A DNA stretch of 38,552 nucleotides, taken from sequence record MN481366.1; one strand, 5' to 3'. Shown one piece after another: positions 1 to 38,552 of the stretch; position 1 is the stretch's first letter; every line of letters begins with the position of its first letter. The notes below the pieces were generated by a model. The model was not told where the DNA came from, ran no database searches, and worked only from the letters and a program-made list of their open reading frames with translations. Source of the DNA: Escherichia phage vB_EcoP_PHB20. The translations under genes and the position numbers were made by a program.

Positions 1-47
1 TGAAATTAGTGATACAGGTCTAAGTATCTGATTCTAGACCATTATTC

Positions 48-70
48 TAATTCGACTCACTATAGGGAGA
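48..70 (+). promoter_or_regulatory. T7 RNAP promoter, phiOR-like (right-end promoter upstream of gene 19.5)
   Basis: taattcgactcactatagggaga matches the 23-bp T7 consensus with one mismatch at -13; +1 G at 65. Confidence 0.75.
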
Positions 71-164
71 AGCCTACCTAAAGATAACTATAAGACTTAA
101 AGTGTCCTATAAGGTAGGTTGTTATTATGATTATTAATACAACCAACATAAAGGGAGGAGACTC

Positions 165-314
165 ATGTTCCGCTTATTGTTGAACCTACTGCGGCATAGA
201 GTCACATACCGCTTTCTTATGGTACTTTGTGCTGCCCTTGGTTATGCAGCTTTTAGTGGGGACCTCAGTTCGCTGGAGTCTACCGTTTGCTCTTTACTCA
301 CTTGTATTGATTAA
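165..314 (+). CDS. 19.5: gene 19.5 protein (49 aa, small hydrophobic right-end protein)
   Basis: ATG 165 preceded by aagggaggag; translation MFRLLLNLLRHRVTYRFLMVLCAALGYAAFSGDLSSLESTVCSLLTCID, near-identical to T7 gp19.5 as recalled; below the 60-aa track cutoff. Confidence 0.8.
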   Translation: MFRLLLNLLRHRVTYRFLMVLCAALGYAAFSGDLSSLESTVCSLLTCID

Positions 315-554
315 GGTCTTACTGACCGACTGATGGCTCACCGAGGGATTCAGCGGTATGATTGCATCACACCACTTCATCCCTATAGAGTCAAGTCCTA
401 AGGTATACCCATAAAGAGCCTCTAATGGTCTATCCGTAAGGTCTATACCTAAAGATAGGCCATCCTATCAGTGGAACCTAAAGAGGGTCCTAGAGAGGGC
501 CTGAGGAGTCCCTAGAGGGTCCTTTAAAATATACCATAAAAATCTGAGTGACTA

Positions 555-704
555 TCTCACAGTTTAAGAACCCAAAGTTCCCCCCATAGGGGTCCCTAAA
601 GCCCAGCCAATCACCTTGAGTCAACTTTCAGTTGACCTTGAGGGGTCCCTAAGGGTTGGGGTTGACCCTTTGGGTGTTACCTTGAGTGTCTCTTCTTGTC
701 CCCT
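555..704. repeat. Terminal repeat homolog (single copy in window; physical genome end / concatemer junction)
   Basis: tctcacag...gtgtctcttcttgtcccct aligns to the 160-bp T7 direct terminal repeat; right-end sequence lies upstream and left-end sequence downstream. Confidence 0.7.
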
Positions 705-6447: not shown

Positions 6448-6455
6448 CGTCACAT

Positions 6456-6478
6456 TAATACGACTCACTATAGAGGGA
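6456..6478 (+). promoter_or_regulatory. T7 RNAP promoter phi1.1A, copy 1
   Basis: taatacgactcactatagaggga; +1 G at 6473. Confidence 0.85.
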
Positions 6479-6529
6479 CAAACTCAAGGTCACTTAATGA
6501 GTGGCCTTTATTATTGACCTTCTTCCGGT

Positions 6530-6552
6530 TAATACGACTCACTATAGAGGGA
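6530..6552 (+). promoter_or_regulatory. T7 RNAP promoter phi1.1A, copy 2 (duplicated)
   Basis: Identical 23-mer; +1 G at 6547. Confidence 0.85.
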
Positions 6553-6603
6553 CAAACTCAAGGTCACTTAATGAGTGGCCTTTATGATTGACCTTCTTCC
6601 GGT

Positions 6604-6626
6604 TAATACGACTCACTATAGGAGAA
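6604..6626 (+). promoter_or_regulatory. T7 RNAP promoter phi1.1B
   Basis: taatacgactcactataggagaa; +1 G at 6621. Confidence 0.85.
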
Positions 6627-10985: not shown

Positions 10986-12735
<1,750 letters not shown>

Positions 12736-12749
12736 AGGAGGTACACACC

Positions 12750-12962
12750 ATGTTTAAACTGATTAAGAAGTTAGGCCAACTGCTGGTTCGTATGTACAAC
12801 GTGGAAGCTAAGCGTTTGAACGATGAGGCTCGTAAAGAGGCCACACAGTCACGCGCTCTGGCTATTCGCTCCAACGAACTTGCCGACAGTGCATCAACTA
12901 AAGTTACAGAAGCTGCCCGTGTAGCCAACCAAGCTCAACAGCTTTCCAAATTCTTTGAGTAA
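12750..12962 (+). CDS. 4.3: gp4.3 (70 aa)
   Basis: MFKLIKKLGQLLVRMYNVEAKRLNDEARKEATQSRALAIRSNELADSASTKVTEAARVANQAQQLSKFFE; matches T7 gp4.3. Confidence 0.85.
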   Translation: MFKLIKKLGQLLVRMYNVEAKRLNDEARKEATQSRALAIRSNELADSASTKVTEAARVANQAQQLSKFFE

Positions 12963-12981: not shown

Positions 12982-13251
12982 ATGTCTAACGTAGCTGAAA
13001 CTATCCGTCTATCCGATACCACTGACCAGTGGAACCGTCGAGTCCACATCAACGTTCGCAACGGTAAGGCGACTATGGTTTACCGCTGGAAGGACTCTAA
13101 GTCCTCTAAGAATCACACTCAGCGTATGACGTTGACAGATGAGCAAGCACTGCGTCTGGTCAATGCACTTACCAAAGCTGCCGTGACAGCAATCCATGAA
13201 GCTGGTCGCGTAGATGAAGCTATGGCTATCCTCGACAAGATTGATAGCTAA
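12982..13251 (+). CDS. 4.5: gp4.5 (89 aa; Lon protease inhibitor in T7)
   Basis: Internal ATG of track ORF 12955..13251 after aggaga SD; MSNVAETIRLSDTTDQWNRRVHINVRNGKATMVYRWKD... Confidence 0.85.
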   Translation: MSNVAETIRLSDTTDQWNRRVHINVRNGKATMVYRWKDSKSSKNHTQRMTLTDEQALRLVNALTKAAVTAIHEAGRVDEAMAILDKIDS

Positions 13252-13257
13252 GAGTGG

Positions 13258-13292
13258 TATACTCAAGGTCGCCCAAGTGGTGGCCTTCATGA
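13258..13292 (+). promoter_or_regulatory. RNase III processing hairpin R4.7
   Basis: tatactcaaggtcgcccaagtggtggccttcatg. Confidence 0.55.
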
Positions 13293-13295
13293 ATA

Positions 13296-13318
13296 CTATT
13301 CGACTCACTATAGGAGAT
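13296..13318 (+). promoter_or_regulatory. T7 RNAP promoter phi4.7
   Basis: ctattcgactcactataggagat; +1 G at 13313. Confidence 0.8.
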
Positions 13319-13324
13319 ATTATC

Positions 13325-13732
13325 ACGCGTGACCCTAAAGTTATCCAAGCAGAAATCGCTAAACTGGAAGCTGAACTGGAGGACGTTAAGTACCATGAAG
13401 CTAAGACTCGCTCCGCTGTTCACATCTTGAAGAACTTAGGCTGGACTTGGACAAGACAGACTGGCTGGAAGAAACCAGAAGTTAATAAACTGAGCCACAA
13501 GGTGTTCGATAAGGACACTATGACCCACATCAAGGCTGGTGATTGGGTTAAGGTTGACATGGGAGTTGTTGGTGGATACGGCTATGTCCGCTCAGTGAGT
13601 GGTAAATACGCACAAGTGTCATACATCACAGGTGTTACTCCACGAGGAGCAATCGTTGCTGATAAGACCAACATGATTCACACAGGCTTCTTGACAGTTG
13701 TCTCGTATGAAGAGATTGTTAAGTCACGATAA
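13325..13732 (+). CDS. 4.7: gene 4.7 homolog (135 codons) with ACG at the conserved start position; possibly untranslated or starting downstream at ATG 13520
   Basis: Open frame to 13732 with T7 gp4.7-like sequence; codon at +12 from the phi4.7 start, where T7 has ATG, reads acg; no ATG/GTG/TTG in frame until 13520. Confidence 0.55.
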   Translation, partial: TRDPKVIQAEIAKLEAELEDVKYHEAKTRSAVHILKNLGWTWTRQTGWKKPEVNKLSHKVFDKDTMTHIKAGDWVKVDMGVVGGYGYVRSVSGKYAQVSYITGVTPRGAIVADKTNMIHTGFLTVVSYEEIVKSR

Positions 13733-13750: not shown

Positions 13751-15865
13751 ATGATCGTTTCTGACATCGAAGCTAACGCCCTCTTAGAGAGCGTCACTAA
13801 GTTCCACTGCGGGGTTATCTACGACTACTCCACCGCTGAGTACGTAAGCTACCGTCCGAGTGGCTTCGGTGCGTATCTGGATGCGCTGGAAGCCGAGGTT
13901 GCACGAGGCGGTCTTATTGTGTTCCACAACGGTCACAAGTATGACGTTCCTGCATTGACCAAACTGGCAAAGCTACAATTGAACCGAGAGTTCCACCTTC
14001 CTCGTGAGAACTGTATCGACACCCTTGTGCTGTCACGTTTGATTCACTCTAACCTGAAAGACACCGATATGGGTCTTCTGCGTTCCGGTAAGTTGCCGGG
14101 GAAACGCTTTGGGTCTCACGCTTTGGAGGCGTGGGGTTATCGCTTAGGCGAAATGAAAGGTGAATACAAGGATGACTTTAAGCGTATGCTTGAAGAGCAA
14201 GGTGAAGAATACGTTGACGGAATGGAATGGTGGAACTTCAACGAAGAGATGATGGACTATAACGTTCAGGACGTTGTGGTCACTAAGGCTCTCCTTGAGA
14301 AGCTGCTCTCTGATAAACATTACTTCCCTCCTGAGATTGACTTTACGGACGTAGGCTACACTACGTTCTGGTCAGAATCCCTTGAGGCCGTTGACGTTGA
14401 ACATCGCGCTGCGTGGCTACTCGCTAAGCAAGAGCGTAATGGGTTCCCGTTTGACACGAAGGCAATCGAGGAGTTGTACGTAGAGTTAGCTGCTCGCCGC
14501 TCTGAGTTGCTCCGCAAATTGACCGAAACGTTCGGCTCGTGGTATCAGCCCAAAGGTGGCACCGAAATGTTCTGCCATCCGAGGACTGGTAAGCCATTAC
14601 CTAAATACCCTCGCATTAAGATACCTAAAGTTGGTGGTATCTTTAAGAAGCCTAAGAACAAGGCACAGCGAGAGGGCCGTGAGCATTGCGAACTGGATAC
14701 CCGTGAGTACGTTGCTGGCGCTCCGTATACTCCAGTTGAGCACGTAGTGTTTAACCCTTCGTCTCGCGACCACATCCAGAAGAAACTCCAAGAGGCTGGA
14801 TGGGTCCCCACGAAGTACACCGATAAGGGTGCGCCTGTGGTGGACGATGAGGTACTCGAAGGAGTACGTGTAGATGACCCTGAGAAGCAAGCTGCAATCG
14901 ACCTCATTAAAGAATACTTGATGATTCAGAAGCGAATCGGACAGTCTGCTGAGGGAGACAAGGCGTGGCTTCGTTACGTTGCTGAGGATGGTAAAATTCA
15001 TGGTTCTGTTAATCCCAACGGCGCTGTTACTGGTCGCGCTACTCACGCTTTCCCTAACCTCGCACAGATACCCGGTGTCCGTTCTCCTTATGGTGATAAG
15101 TGCCGCGCTGCTTTTGGCGCTGAACATCACCTAGACGGTATTACTGGTAAGCCTTGGGTTCAGGCGGGTATCGACGCATCCGGCCTTGAGTTGCGCTGTT
15201 TGGCCCACTTCATGGCTCGCTTTGATAACGGTGAGTATGCTCACGAGATTCTCAACGGTGACATCCACACTAAGAACCAGATTGCTGCCGAATTGCCTAC
15301 CCGTGATAACGCCAAGACGTTCATCTATGGGTTCCTTTATGGCGCTGGTGATGAGAAGATTGGACAGATTGTAGGTGCTGGTAAAGAACGCGGTAAGGAA
15401 CTCAAGAAGAAATTCCTTGAGAACACCCCAGCGATTGCAGCACTCCGTGAGTCTATCCAACAGACACTTGTTGAGTCCTCTCAGTGGGTAGCTGGCGAAC
15501 AGCGAGTCAAGTGGAAACGCCGCTGGATTAAAGGTCTGGATGGTCGTAAGGTACACGTTCGTAGTCCTCACGCCGCATTGAATACCCTACTGCAATCGGC
15601 TGGTGCTCTCATCTGCAAACTGTGGATTATCAAGACCGAAGAGATGCTCGTTGAGAAAGGCTTGAAGCACGGCTGGGATGGGGACTTTGCGTACATGGCA
15701 TGGGTACATGATGAAATCCAAGTAGGCTGCCGTACCGAAGAGATTGCCCAGGTGGTCATTGAGACCGCACAAGAGGCGATGCGCTGGGTGGGAGACCACT
15801 GGAACTTCCGGTGTCTTCTGGATACCGAAGGTAAGATGGGTCCTAACTGGGCCGTATGTCACTGA
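13751..15865 (+). CDS. 5: DNA polymerase (gp5), family A with 3'-5' exonuclease
   Basis: 704 aa; exo motif MIVSDIEAN, polymerase motifs YGFLYGAG and VHDE; near-identical to T7 gp5 as recalled. Confidence 0.98.
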
Positions 15866-17638: not shown

Positions 17639-17893
17639 ATGTTAACACCTATTAACCAATTACTTAAGAACCCTAACGATGTTCCAGACGTGCCTCGTGC
17701 GACTGCTGAGTATCTACAGGTTCGATTCAACTATGCGTACCTCGAAGCGTCTGGTCATATAGGACTTATGCGTGCTAATGGTTGTAGTGAGGCCCACATC
17801 TTGGGTTTCATTCAGGGCCTACAGTATGCCTCTAACGTCATTGACGAGATTGAGTTGCGCAAGGAACAACTAAGAGACGATGGGGAGGATTGA
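17639..17893 (+). CDS. 6.5: gp6.5 (84 aa)
   Basis: Track ORF after phi6.5; size and position match T7 6.5. Confidence 0.85.
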
Positions 17894-18565: not shown

Positions 18566-18591
18566 GTTATGGGTAAGAAAATCACGAAGCA

Positions 18592-18879
18592 GTGAAGAAA
18601 GTCACCAAGCCAATTACGAAAGCCGTGAAGAAAGTTACCAAGGAAGTGGCCAGTCCGATTAAACAGGTTGTAGGTGGTCTGGCTGGCGGTGCAGGTGAAG
18701 CACAGGTTGTGGAGGTCCCACAGGCTGCCACTCCTGCTGCACAGATTGGTGACATACCTGAGAAAGAGGTCTCCACCGAGGATGAAGCACAGACCGAAAG
18801 CGGACGTAAGAAAGCTCGTGCTGGCGGTAAGAAGTCCCTGAGTGTAGCTCGTAGCTCCGGTGGCGGCATCAATATTTAA
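18592..18879 (+). CDS. 7.3: gp7.3 (tail-associated), 5' end out of frame with the RBS-proximal ATG at 18569
   Basis: Body VKKVTKPITKAVKKVTKEVASPIKQVVGG...SLSVARSSGGGINI matches T7 gp7.3; ATG 18569 after aaggaggtataagtt opens MGKKITKQ then TGA at 18593-18595; body continues in the other frame from GTG 18592. Confidence 0.7.
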   Translation: MKKVTKPITKAVKKVTKEVASPIKQVVGGLAGGAGEAQVVEVPQAATPAAQIGDIPEKEVSTEDEAQTESGRKKARAGGKKSLSVARSSGGGINI

Positions 18880-36306: not shown

Positions 36307-38067
36307 GTGTCTACTCAATCCAATCGTAATTTGCTCGTTGTGGCGCAACTAAAGGGCGACTTCGTGGCGTTCCTGTTCGTCTTATGGAAGGCGTTAAACC
36401 TTCCGGTGCCCACTAAGTGTCAGATTGACATGGCTAAGGTGCTGGAGAATGGAGACAACAAGAAGTTCATCCTACAGGCTTTCCGTGGTATCGGTAAGTC
36501 GTTCATCACATGTGCGTTCGTTGTGTGGTCCTTATGGAGAGACCCACAGTTGAAGATACTCATTGTATCAGCCTCTAAAGAACGTGCAGACGCTAACTCC
36601 ATCTTCATTAAGAACATCATTGACCTGCTCCCATTCCTTGCTGAGCTAAAGCCAAGACCCGGACAGCGCGACTCTGTAATCAGCTTTGATGTTGGTCCTG
36701 CCAGTCCTGACCACTCGCCTAGTGTGAAATCAGTAGGTATCACTGGTCAGTTAACTGGTAGTCGTGCTGATATTATCATTGCGGATGACGTTGAGATTCC
36801 GTCTAACAGTGCTACTATGGGTGCCCGTGAGAAGCTATGGACTCTGGTTCAGGAGTTCGCTGCGTTACTTAAGCCGCTGCCTACTTCTCGTGTTATCTAC
36901 CTTGGTACACCTCAAACTGAGATGACTCTCTATAAGGAACTGGAGGATAACCGTGGGTACACCACTATCATCTGGCCTGCTCTGTACCCAAGGACTCGTG
37001 AGGAGAATCTTTACTATGCCCAACGTCTTGCCCCAATGCTCCGTGCGGAGTACGAGGAGAATCCTGAGGCTCTGGCTGGTACTCCTACAGACCCTGTTCG
37101 ATTCGACAGAGATGACCTACGTGAGCGTGAGTTGGAATACGGTAAGGCTGGCTTTACGCTACAGTTTATGCTTAACCCGAACCTGAGTGATGCCGAGAAG
37201 TACCCTCTGAGGCTCCGTGACGCTATCGTAGCGGCCTTAGACTTAGAGAAGGCACCGATGCATTACCAGTGGCTTCCGAACCGTCAGAACATCATTGAGG
37301 ACCTTCCTAACGTGGGCCTTAAGGGTGATGACCTGCACACCTACCACGAGTGCTCGAATAACTCTGGTCAGTATCAACAGAAGATTCTGGTCATTGACCC
37401 TAGTGGTCGCGGTAAGGACGAAACAGGTTACGCGGTGCTGTACACCCTCAATGGTTACATCTACCTAATGGAAGCTGGAGGTTTCCGTGACGGTTACTCC
37501 GATAAGACCCTTGAGTTGCTCGCTAAGAAAGCTAAGCAATGGGGAGTCCAGACGGTCGTCTACGAGAGTAACTTCGGTGATGGTATGTTTGGTAAGGTAT
37601 TCAGTCCTATCCTTCTTAAACACCACAACTGTGCTATGGAAGAGATTCGTGCTCGTGGTATGAAGGAGATGCGTATTTGTGATACCCTTGAGCCAGTCAT
37701 GCAGACTCACCGCCTTGTCATTCGTGATGAGGTCATTAGGGCAGACTACCAGTCCGCTCGTGACGTAGACGGTAAGCATGACGTTAAGTATTCACTGTTC
37801 TACCAGATGACCCGCATCACTCGTGAGAAAGGTGCTCTGGCTCATGATGACCGCTTGGATGCTCTTGCGTTAGGCGTTGAGTATCTCCGTGAGTCCATGC
37901 AGTTGGATTCCGTTAAGGTCGAGGGTGAAGTGCTTGCTGACTTCCTTGAGGAGCACATGATGCGTCCTACGGTTGCCGCTACGCATATCATTGAGATGTC
38001 TGTAGGAGGAGTTGATGTGTACTCTGAGGACGATGAGGGTTACGGTACGTCTTTCATTGAGTGGTGA
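36307..38067 (+). CDS. 19: Terminase large subunit (gp19)
   Basis: 586 aa, GTG start after taaggaggtaat; Walker A-like AFRGIGKS; near-identical to T7 gp19 as recalled. Confidence 0.98.
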
Positions 38068-38104: not shown

Positions 38105-38548
38105 ATGATAAACAAGAAGAAGTATGTTGTTGATAAGGAGACTGGTTGCTGGAACTTTAAGGGATGTAAGACGAAGACTGGTTATGGTCGTATCCGTGTG
38201 AATGGTGTCCATTGGATGGCCCACAGGTATTCCCTGAGTTGTCATCTAGGCAGACCGATAGCTGACGGAATGGTTGTGATGCACCTGTGTGATAACCCTT
38301 CGTGTGTTAACCCTGAGCACCTTAAGGAAGGGACCCAGAAGGAAAACATAGAGGACTGCATCTCAAAGGGTCGCGCAACTAAGGCCACAGGTAAACGTGA
38401 TGCGTCGAAGAGAGACCCTAGCGAGGAACGTAAGGCTATAGTGATTCGTAGATACCATAAAGGCTGGAACGCAACGTCCATAGCGAGATACCATAAGCTC
38501 TCTGTGGCGTGGGTCAAGAGGGTCATTGAGGAGTACCTAAGTGATTGA
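38105..38548 (+). CDS. HNH-family homing endonuclease-like protein (147 aa), not at this position in T7
   Basis: Motif ETGCWNFKG..GYGRIRVNGVHWMAHR...VVMHLCDNPSCVNPEHLKEGTQKEN typical of phage HNH endonucleases, plus C-terminal HTH-like AIVIRRYHKGWNATSIARYHKLSVAWVKRV; SD taaggaggtaatATG; rare AGA/AGG/ATA/CTA codons. Confidence 0.85.
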   Translation: MINKKKYVVDKETGCWNFKGCKTKTGYGRIRVNGVHWMAHRYSLSCHLGRPIADGMVVMHLCDNPSCVNPEHLKEGTQKENIEDCISKGRATKATGKRDASKRDPSEERKAIVIRRYHKGWNATSIARYHKLSVAWVKRVIEEYLSD

Positions 38549-38552
38549 TATT

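Follow-up and report, generated by a model that had tools for sequence, protein, structure and literature searches.

The locus described here belongs to the genome of the Escherichia phage vB_EcoP_PHB20 (MN481366), a virulent T7-like phage growing on both BL21 and DH5alpha and used as a wild-type scaffold for engineering (PMC10004113). The whole stretch of DNA that was analysed, 38,552 nucleotides in length, is referred to as the window. Gene 4.7 sits there between genes 4.5 and 5, directly 3' of the RNase III processing site R4.7 and the promoter phi4.7; the coordinates of all the features concerned are collected in Table 1. The homologue of gene 4.5 is terminated by the TAA at 13249-13251 and is read in a frame different from that of gene 4.7, with which the annotation of the relatives agrees. 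A fused 4.5-4.7 product, also considered as a candidate, was rejected on account of both these features.

Table 1. Features around the start of gene 4.7 in the PHB20 window
Feature	Position (nt)	Strand	Remarks
Gene 4.5 homologue	12982-13251	+	T7 gene 4.5 start maps here; ATG kept; 89 codons
In-frame TTG	13241-13243	+	Start of the IME390 CDS 12386-12877; product of 163-164 aa; overlaps the end of gene 4.5
R4.7 RNase III processing hairpin	13252-13301	+	Predicted fold; the equivalent of 13252-13300 is annotated in phage R
In-frame ATG, 12 codons upstream	13289-13291	+	Start in the PHB20 record; 147 aa, QHI00801.1
Promoter phi4.7, T7-type class II (-17 to +6)	13296-13318	+	+1 is G 13313; T7 annotation, phage R feature
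Shine-Dalgarno GGAGA of gene 4.7	13313-13317	+	5' end of the phi4.7 transcript; intact
In-frame near-cognate AUC, candidate leaky start	13322-13324	+	5 nt past GGAG; adjoins the ACG
ACG at the conserved gene 4.7 initiation codon	13325-13327	+	T>C at 13326
Gene 4.7 frame	13325-13732	+	135 codons plus TAA 13730-13732; PHROG 4023 / PF26857
Shine-Dalgarno-like TAAGGA (13510-13515) and in-frame ATG 13520 (Met66)	13510-13522	+	Possible internal product of 70 aa
Gene 5, DNA polymerase	13751-15865	+	Downstream of gene 4.7; ATG start intact

The segment leading from the promoter into the gene (13296-13330) reads ...TATTCGACTCACTATAGGAGATATTATCACGCGT, its part from 13313 to 13330 being GGAGATATTATCACGCGT. 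In the alignment, position 13313 corresponds to the annotated +1 of phi4.7 (T7 13915), and the triplet beginning 12 nt after it—an ACG—is aligned with the annotated ATG of gene 4.7 in T7 (V01146, 13927), phiA1122 (11979) and Yersinia phage R (11604). An earlier reading of the window, made from the sequence only, had claimed that an ACG occupies the place of the T7 start codon and that the change creates an MluI site; the alignment with the three phages bears out the former claim and the site ACGCGT was found at 13325-13330. The AUG expected of the gene 4.7 family at the conserved M1-R2 position is thus absent, ACG being present instead. Concerning the two substitutions with regard to T7 noticed in the same reading, both exist, with the restriction that a single one, T>C at 13326, is peculiar to the lineage; the other one, C>T at 13324 (position -3; ATTACC>ATTATC), is present also in the phages 64795_ec1, vB_YpYeO9 and JacobBurckhardt as well as in two IMG/VR contigs, all of them possessing ATG.

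The loss of a start codon is an exception in this genome. When 46 CDS starts of T7 were mapped onto the window, the T7 start codon was found at 44 of them, the two remaining cases being gene 4.7 and ORF 19.3, a doubtful nested frame in which the altered base is a wobble position of gene 19. Gene 4.7 is therefore the sole free-standing gene with a lost start codon among the mapped ones.

The distribution of the ACG allele was followed at the level of both nucleotide and protein sequences. When 61 nt with the codon in the middle were used as the query, 116 phage records were matched; identity was limited to two entries of Enterobacteria phage vB_EcoP_IME390, i.e. a single genome present in both GenBank and RefSeq, and the records with one mismatch—those of the three phages sharing the change at -3—read ATTATC-ATG. 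With the codon left open as NNN, the pattern matched nine contigs of IMG/VR, every one of which has ATG. The ACG allele was absent from metagenomes in a scan with the strict pattern, and from metagenomes and viral contigs in a scan with a looser pattern allowing a free spacer. In the protein database, 104 clusters of homologues were found, all with the precomputed assignment to PF26857; each of the 16 clusters of unusual length that were inspected (143-159 aa, or truncated to 74-92 aa) has a methionine at the canonical position, in the context ...GDITMRDPKV or ...GDIIMRDPKV, and the canonical methionine is kept also, in the cluster to which the window protein belongs, by the two members of 172 aa. 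No variation at M1 and R2 was seen among 52 aligned homologues, down to 37% identity, which argues that the T7 gene 4.7 starts where it is annotated; a T7 start located elsewhere, the circumstance in which the claim of the sequence-only reading would fall, is contradicted by this invariance. Among the records covered, ACG is a derived state limited to PHB20 and IME390.

As far as the relationship between the two phages is concerned, positions 13-37698 of IME390 (MH779619) and 868-38552 of the window were aligned with 99.984% identity, the window representing a circular permutation of a genome nearly identical to that of IME390. The two genomes differ by five SNPs, by an indel of 1 nt and by 12 extra copies of a tandem repeat with a unit of 13 bp. 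According to its record, IME390 was obtained from sewage, with BL21 as the host; both phages, which are viable and lytic, were grown on E. coli BL21, and they may have a common recent source. Since they are nearly identical and form one lineage, their ACG represents a single mutational event, and the second genome confirms it only in a partly independent manner. On the other hand, the occurrence of the ACG in two non-identical assemblies makes a random base-calling error unlikely. As a separate observation, the window assembly exhibits at least one dubious indel, a 1-nt deletion in gene 7.3 at position 18589; the per-base accuracy of this assembly is therefore imperfect.

Apart from the start codon, the gene is well preserved. 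The 135-codon frame continues uninterrupted up to its TAA and matches phrog_4023 with E = 3.7e-62 over residues 1-134, so that its description as intact and 4.7-like proved correct. Besides codon 1, a single residue differs from T7 gp4.7, i.e. N54 instead of T54, the former being present in phiA1122, too. Pairwise dN/dS values between the window gene and 11 other alleles range from 0.01 to 0.16, indicating strong purifying selection acting on the family. In comparison with the same 11 alleles, T>C at 13326 is the sole private nucleotide in 408 nt. The start mutation must therefore be very recent and, as a consequence, the intactness of the frame is not yet informative with regard to the continued use of the gene. 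Secondary decay, in terms of private changes beyond the start mutation, was not seen, the lineage being too young for such a test to have power.

The protein itself has been described as being of unknown function (PMC12798971), and 'unknown function' is the label of PHROG 4023, too. From the local copy of Pfam, nothing but a match to HicA_toxin below the threshold was obtained (E = 0.073; 13.6 bits vs the cut-off of 27). The AlphaFold2 model of gp4.7 (mean pLDDT 84.6) predicts an N-terminal helix (residues 4-37) followed by a hairpin (41-49), a linker of low confidence (approximately 51-70) and a confidently modelled beta domain (74-126). When the model was compared with the PDB by Foldseek, weak matches to generic SH3/KOW/Tudor-like barrels were obtained, the best one with E = 0.011; they suggest a fold class for the modelled domain without assigning a function.

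The elements responsible for the expression of the gene are unaffected. The phi4.7 promoter is identical to that of T7 in the alignment, and an effect of the substitutions on the promoter was rejected, since they are located at +12 and +14, i.e. outside the segment from -17 to +6. The GGAG at 13313-13316 is the site of the strongest anti-Shine-Dalgarno pairing in the region (-7.3 kcal/mol), situated 7-8 nt 5' of the ACG, and both the Shine-Dalgarno sequence and the start are predicted to be unpaired (P about 0.8-0.9); a Shine-Dalgarno sequence at a productive distance and an accessible start region are thus both present. A further candidate, the new palindrome CACGCGTG altering the mRNA 5' structure or the access to the Shine-Dalgarno sequence, was rejected, too: for the initial 70 nt transcribed from phi4.7, the predicted structure and the unpaired probabilities are the same with ACG as with ATG. 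Since the predicted structure is unchanged, the mutation would act via the codon-anticodon pairing only. A scan of the segment 12900-13900 with Rfam gave no match to an RNA family.

In E. coli, ACG has been assigned to the class of codons initiating at approximately 0.1-1% of the AUG level, whereas AUC reaches approximately 1-2%; GFP started by ACG and expressed from a T7-promoter plasmid in BL21(DE3) was found to carry an N-terminal methionine (Hecht et al., bioRxiv 10.1101/063800). The AUC is relevant here because the shared polymorphism at -3 (ACC>AUC) makes AUC 13322 and ACG 13325 neighbouring candidates for weak starts.

Gene 4.7 is non-essential and has repeatedly been lost in laboratory T7. 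Parallel deletions of 769-1019 bp removing genes 4.5-4.7 were fixed in heat-adapted T7 (PMC8923235), mutants of T7 with a disrupted gp4.7 gained in frequency over long serial transfer (PMC9825161) and a reduced T7 was built by the designed removal of gp4.3-4.7 (PMC12153263). The mutant clone T7_1t1 (OL964748) combines a 100-bp deletion inside gene 4.7 with a G>A substitution in the promoter phi4.7.

Based on the above results, it is probable that a recent natural T>C change has left transcription, processing, the Shine-Dalgarno sequence and the ORF of gene 4.7 intact, that gp4.7 is made by leaky initiation in a small fraction of its normal amount, and that this is tolerated, the gene being dispensable. 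According to this explanation, a single transition would have converted the initiator AUG of the class II gene 4.7 to ACG in the PHB20/IME390 lineage, with the phi4.7 promoter, the R4.7 site, the GGAG, the predicted 5' structure of the mRNA and the coding frame all unaltered, so that its sole effect would be a start codon mismatched with the anticodon of fMet-tRNA. From the reporter studies and from another gene of T7 we infer, by extrapolation, that the synthesis of full-length gp4.7 would drop by about two orders of magnitude or more. The residual trickle probably stems from initiation with methionine at ACG 13325 and/or the in-frame AUC 13322, to which the 70-aa C-terminal domain made from the internal ATG 13520 might be added, if that start is used at all. 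Such a change would be tolerated by the phage since gp4.7 can be dispensed with on BL21 and similar laboratory hosts, and the gene would look perfect because there has been too little time for decay. The gene 4.7 of PHB20 and IME390 is most likely a hypomorph or an incipient pseudogene. As a counterpoint, the intact frame with zero private non-synonymous changes fits also the selection on a still expressed gene. Of the alternatives proposed in the sequence-only reading, a silenced gene and translation from a non-canonical or downstream start stay live, not so much as separate choices but rather as joint parts of this explanation, i.e. a strong knock-down with possible leaky or internal initiation.

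With regard to the downstream starts, it had also been claimed that no canonical in-frame start precedes ATG 13520. This holds for ATG codons downstream of the ACG, but neither for TTG and GTG nor for the upstream part of the frame. The in-frame TTG 13427 and GTG 13502 have very weak predicted Shine-Dalgarno pairing (+1.5 and -1.9 kcal/mol, respectively); a canonical start with a Shine-Dalgarno sequence equivalent to the lost one was not found on the phi4.7 transcript, the next in-frame ATG so equipped being codon 66.

It might be that the gene yields mainly or only the 70-aa C-terminal SH3-like domain from ATG 13520. This is rather doubtful as a full account, while being compatible with the leaky knock-down. 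The TAAGGA (-5.9 kcal/mol) precedes the ATG by 3-4 nt, which is a short and sub-optimal spacer. Met66 is nearly invariant in the alignment of the 52 homologues and falls into the low-confidence linker just before the compact, confidently modelled beta domain; an internal product of 70 aa is, with respect to the model, structurally plausible. At the nucleotide level, the AAG-GAC is conserved in close relatives, the neighbouring wobble sites being variable (five distinct nucleotide haplotypes). However, a constraint at the protein level explains the conservation of Met66 and of the K-D pair equally well. A step further would be to regard 4.7 as a nested gene with two products, comparable to 4A/4B, in which the full-length gp4.7—the N-terminal helix plus the SH3/KOW-like domain—would be accompanied by the 70-aa C-terminal domain starting at Met66. 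This arrangement, suggested by sequence features, is quite improbable. If true, PHB20 and IME390 would represent natural separation-of-function mutants, keeping the short product and making the long one just as a trickle from ACG/AUC, and the change of the start would mean a selected re-balancing of the isoforms instead of a simple loss of the gene.

Alternatively, the ACG, with or without the AUC, could be a functional weak start maintained by selection, gp4.7 being needed in low amounts. The E. coli gene infC, with its AUU, is an example of such a regulatory non-AUG start. The intact, well-spaced and predictedly unpaired Shine-Dalgarno sequence, the perfect frame free of private amino acid changes and the fact that both ACG and AUC measurably start with methionine in E. 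coli, including on T7-promoter transcripts in BL21(DE3), would all agree with this possibility. Moreover, its occurrence in two deposited phages shows that the allele is stably propagated; it could be neutral, beneficial or tuned. Against it, no other relative keeps a non-AUG codon, all the 52 homologues have methionine and no other carrier was found in the DNA searches; one lineage with one mutation does not provide evidence of maintenance, and laboratory passage tolerates, or even favours, the loss of gene 4.7. Selection for a weak start is hence considered improbable, and the preferred explanation remains the tolerated knock-down.

Both GenBank records place the start of the gene upstream of the ACG. 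The frame of gene 4.7 is open back to ATG 13214, with the TTG 13241 and the ATG 13289 in between, and an exact protein look-up identified the product of the ORF 13289-13729 as QHI00801.1. If one of the annotated starts were used, an N-terminally extended protein of 147 aa (from ATG 13289) or 163-164 aa (from TTG 13241) would be produced, beginning with MNTIRLTIGDIITR... or MIAKSG..., and the gene would not be silenced at all. Besides the open frame and the two annotations, this would be favoured by a weak GGUGG located 5 nt before ATG 13289. The extension, however, is nothing but the translated R4.7 hairpin and phi4.7 promoter. ATG 13289 and TTG 13241 precede the +1 of phi4.7, so that they are missing from the phi4.7 transcripts. 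In the RNase III hairpin, at which read-through transcripts get processed, the AUG at 13289-13291 occupies the 3' side of the internal loop; the cut in T7, which we take to be at about T7 13892, would correspond to position 13290 of the window. The Shine-Dalgarno pairing is -4.9 kcal/mol for ATG 13289, its GGUGG being sequestered in the upper stem, and just -1.5 kcal/mol for TTG 13241. Finally, the relatives with the canonical ATG have the same upstream codons and the same open frame, which are thus not compensatory. ATG 13289, TTG 13241 and ATG 13214 were accordingly rejected as real starts, all of them being located upstream of the +1, weak in Shine-Dalgarno pairing and unchanged in relatives with the canonical ATG, with 13252-13301 occupied by the RNase III hairpin; a gene rescued by any of them is very unlikely. 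The annotated starts TTG 13241 and ATG 13289 are judged to be gene-caller artefacts.

That the ACG results from faulty sequencing or assembly, or from the deliberate introduction of an MluI site or a knock-out of gene 4.7, is hardly credible: the change does give rise to ACGCGT, the window does contain the suspect indel in gene 7.3 and PHB20 does serve as an engineering scaffold, but both assemblies carry the ACG in spite of the SNPs, the indel and the different repeat arrays, the site lies outside homopolymer runs, the deposited PHB20 genome is that of the wild-type scaffold, the published edits being made on its derivatives and limited to the tail-fibre gene (PMC10004113), IME390 is recorded as a sewage isolate and the change at -3 is a natural polymorphism. 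The window contains two copies of ACGCGT vs about 7.8 expected from shuffles; the MluI site is thus not the only one, nor are such sites in excess, which makes it unremarkable and incidental. The suggestion of an engineered change found no support, this being a single transition in two separately deposited phages next to a natural polymorphism; neither a construct provenance, nor a unique diagnostic site, nor other scars were found.

With respect to its consequences, the event is of a well-known type, ordinary in nature, and reveals no new mechanism. Its main value consists in the correction of the annotation in both GenBank records, which carry artificial, N-terminally extended 4.7 proteins of 147 and 163 aa created by translating the promoter and the RNase III site, and in the caution that follows, since several gene-caller-derived clusters in large protein databases are likewise over-extended, even with the ATG present. 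In addition, the allele would offer a ready-made probe of gp4.7, as a natural knock-down that is minimally invasive and affects a gene both conserved and of unknown function.

Among the known systems, the closest precedent for the ACG of gene 4.7 is Studier's ACG mutant of T7 gene 0.3. In that mutant, the change of AUG to ACG retained the recruitment of ribosomes, whereas the synthesis of the protein, in vitro as well as in vivo, was severely reduced (Dunn et al. 1978, PNAS 75:2741, as summarized in PMC5499595). The two cases share the phage group, the base change and an otherwise intact ribosome-binding site. They differ, however, in that the gene 0.3 mutant was selected in the laboratory and concerns an early gene transcribed by the host RNA polymerase, whereas the allele of PHB20 and IME390 comes from deposited wild-type isolates and belongs to a class II gene whose leader, transcribed from a T7 promoter, measures 12 nt.

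The T7 lines lacking, or disrupted in, genes 4.5-4.7 resemble the present case in the loss of the same gene with viability kept, the disruption being able to rise during passage. These lines exhibit deletions of 100-1019 bp, some of them selected for a smaller genome, whereas PHB20 and IME390 have retained the DNA, with translation initiation alone affected. The likeness to the regulatory non-AUG starts of E. coli lies in a near-cognate codon behind a good Shine-Dalgarno sequence, with initiation by fMet at a low level; those starts are conserved in relatives, whereas the ACG of gene 4.7 is found in one lineage only. As for the annotated pair 4A/4B of T7, it has, like gene 4.7 with its ATG 13520, an in-frame internal ATG with a Shine-Dalgarno sequence of its own within a class II gene; the 4B protein is an experimentally established product, whereas the internal product of gene 4.7 is a possibility drawn from sequence.

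The laboratory T7 mutant clone T7_1t1 (OL964748.1; locus L019) is an independent case of gene 4.7 loss, carrying a deletion of 100 bp inside the gene (nt 246-345 of T7 gene 4.7; locus position ~574/575). The core of its phi4.7 promoter also exhibits a G>A substitution that changes TTCGACTCAC to TTCAACTCAC (locus position ~306), and this promoter, too, has possibly been lost. As for the product itself, the AlphaFold2 model of gp4.7, read from 13325-13729, predicts a long helix at the N terminus, followed by a small hairpin and a flexible linker, and at the C terminus a β-barrel resembling the SH3/KOW folds; a Pfam match of residues 31-60 to HicA_toxin is sub-threshold (E = 0.073).

Concerning annotation, gene 4.7 is often called too long upstream, across the phi4.7 promoter and the R4.7 processing site, giving products of 147, 163 and 172 residues, and such calls occur even in phages with the canonical ATG intact. 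The database clusters concerned are P0001, P0006, P0007, P0017, P0020, P0107 and P0115; one cluster, with 331 members, has the over-extended form as its representative. An ACG in place of ATG is found also at the start of the T7 'gene 19.3' (37490-37492), a doubtful ORF nested out of frame within gene 19. The altered base occupies a third-codon position of gene 19, and the change is consistent with a lack of constraint on 19.3 as a gene.

Among the differences from the near-identical phage IME390, the one in gene 7.3 consists of a single G missing at 18589 (position 17734 in IME390), turning AAGGCAG into AAGCAG. The loss cuts the gene 7.3 homologue, starting with the ATG at 18569, to eight codons and leaves a remainder of 95 residues from the GTG at 18592, where a Shine-Dalgarno sequence is not obvious. 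Because gp7.3 is needed for virion infectivity, according to the note in the T7 RefSeq record, the PHB20 record has probably been misassembled at this point; were the deletion real, gene 7.3 would need a downstream start.

Coordinates of the features compared with related phages
Feature	Window position	Remark
13-bp array	715-932	perfect tandem repeat, unit CCTCCTAAAGTCA, 16.8 copies
Permuted ends of the window	1-700 and 38300-38552	
Over-extended 4.7 ORFs	13241-13732 and 13289-13732	
Gene 7.3 indel region	18569-18595	comparison with IME390
Duplicated 93-nt stretch	6455-6621	direct orientation, offset 74 nt, 98.9% identity

Compared with both T7 and IME390, the window is a circular permutation; it opens within the right-end region, where a phiOR-like T7 promoter lies at ~48-70 and gene 19.5 at 165. 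Its first 698 nucleotides are the final 698 nucleotides of IME390, and the physical genome end is therefore placed, from this correspondence of sequence, probably near 698/699. When the window's two ends were compared, they shared no exact terminal direct repeat 21-400 nt long. The 13-bp array adjoins the presumed genome end and has 12 copies fewer in IME390, which accounts for the gap of 156 bp in length between the two records; the difference could reflect either repeat collapse in one of the assemblies or genuine variation in copy number.

With regard to T7 itself, probes for the start regions of its genes 5.3 and 7.7 found nothing in the window genome-wide, and those for 1.4, 1.8 and 3.8 recovered short fragments only, in which the start codon was not included. 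The ORFs 0.6A and 1.7 are shorter in the window than in T7 (25 versus 53 and 104 versus 196 codons, respectively), whereas ORF 17, encoding the tail fibre, exceeds its T7 counterpart in length (654 versus 553 codons). These differences in gene content and ORF length are ordinary mosaicism of T7-like phages. Finally, the direct 93-nt duplication lies upstream of the window's gene 1.1 start (6705); T7 possesses the tandem promoters phi1.1A and phi1.1B directly upstream of gene 1.1.
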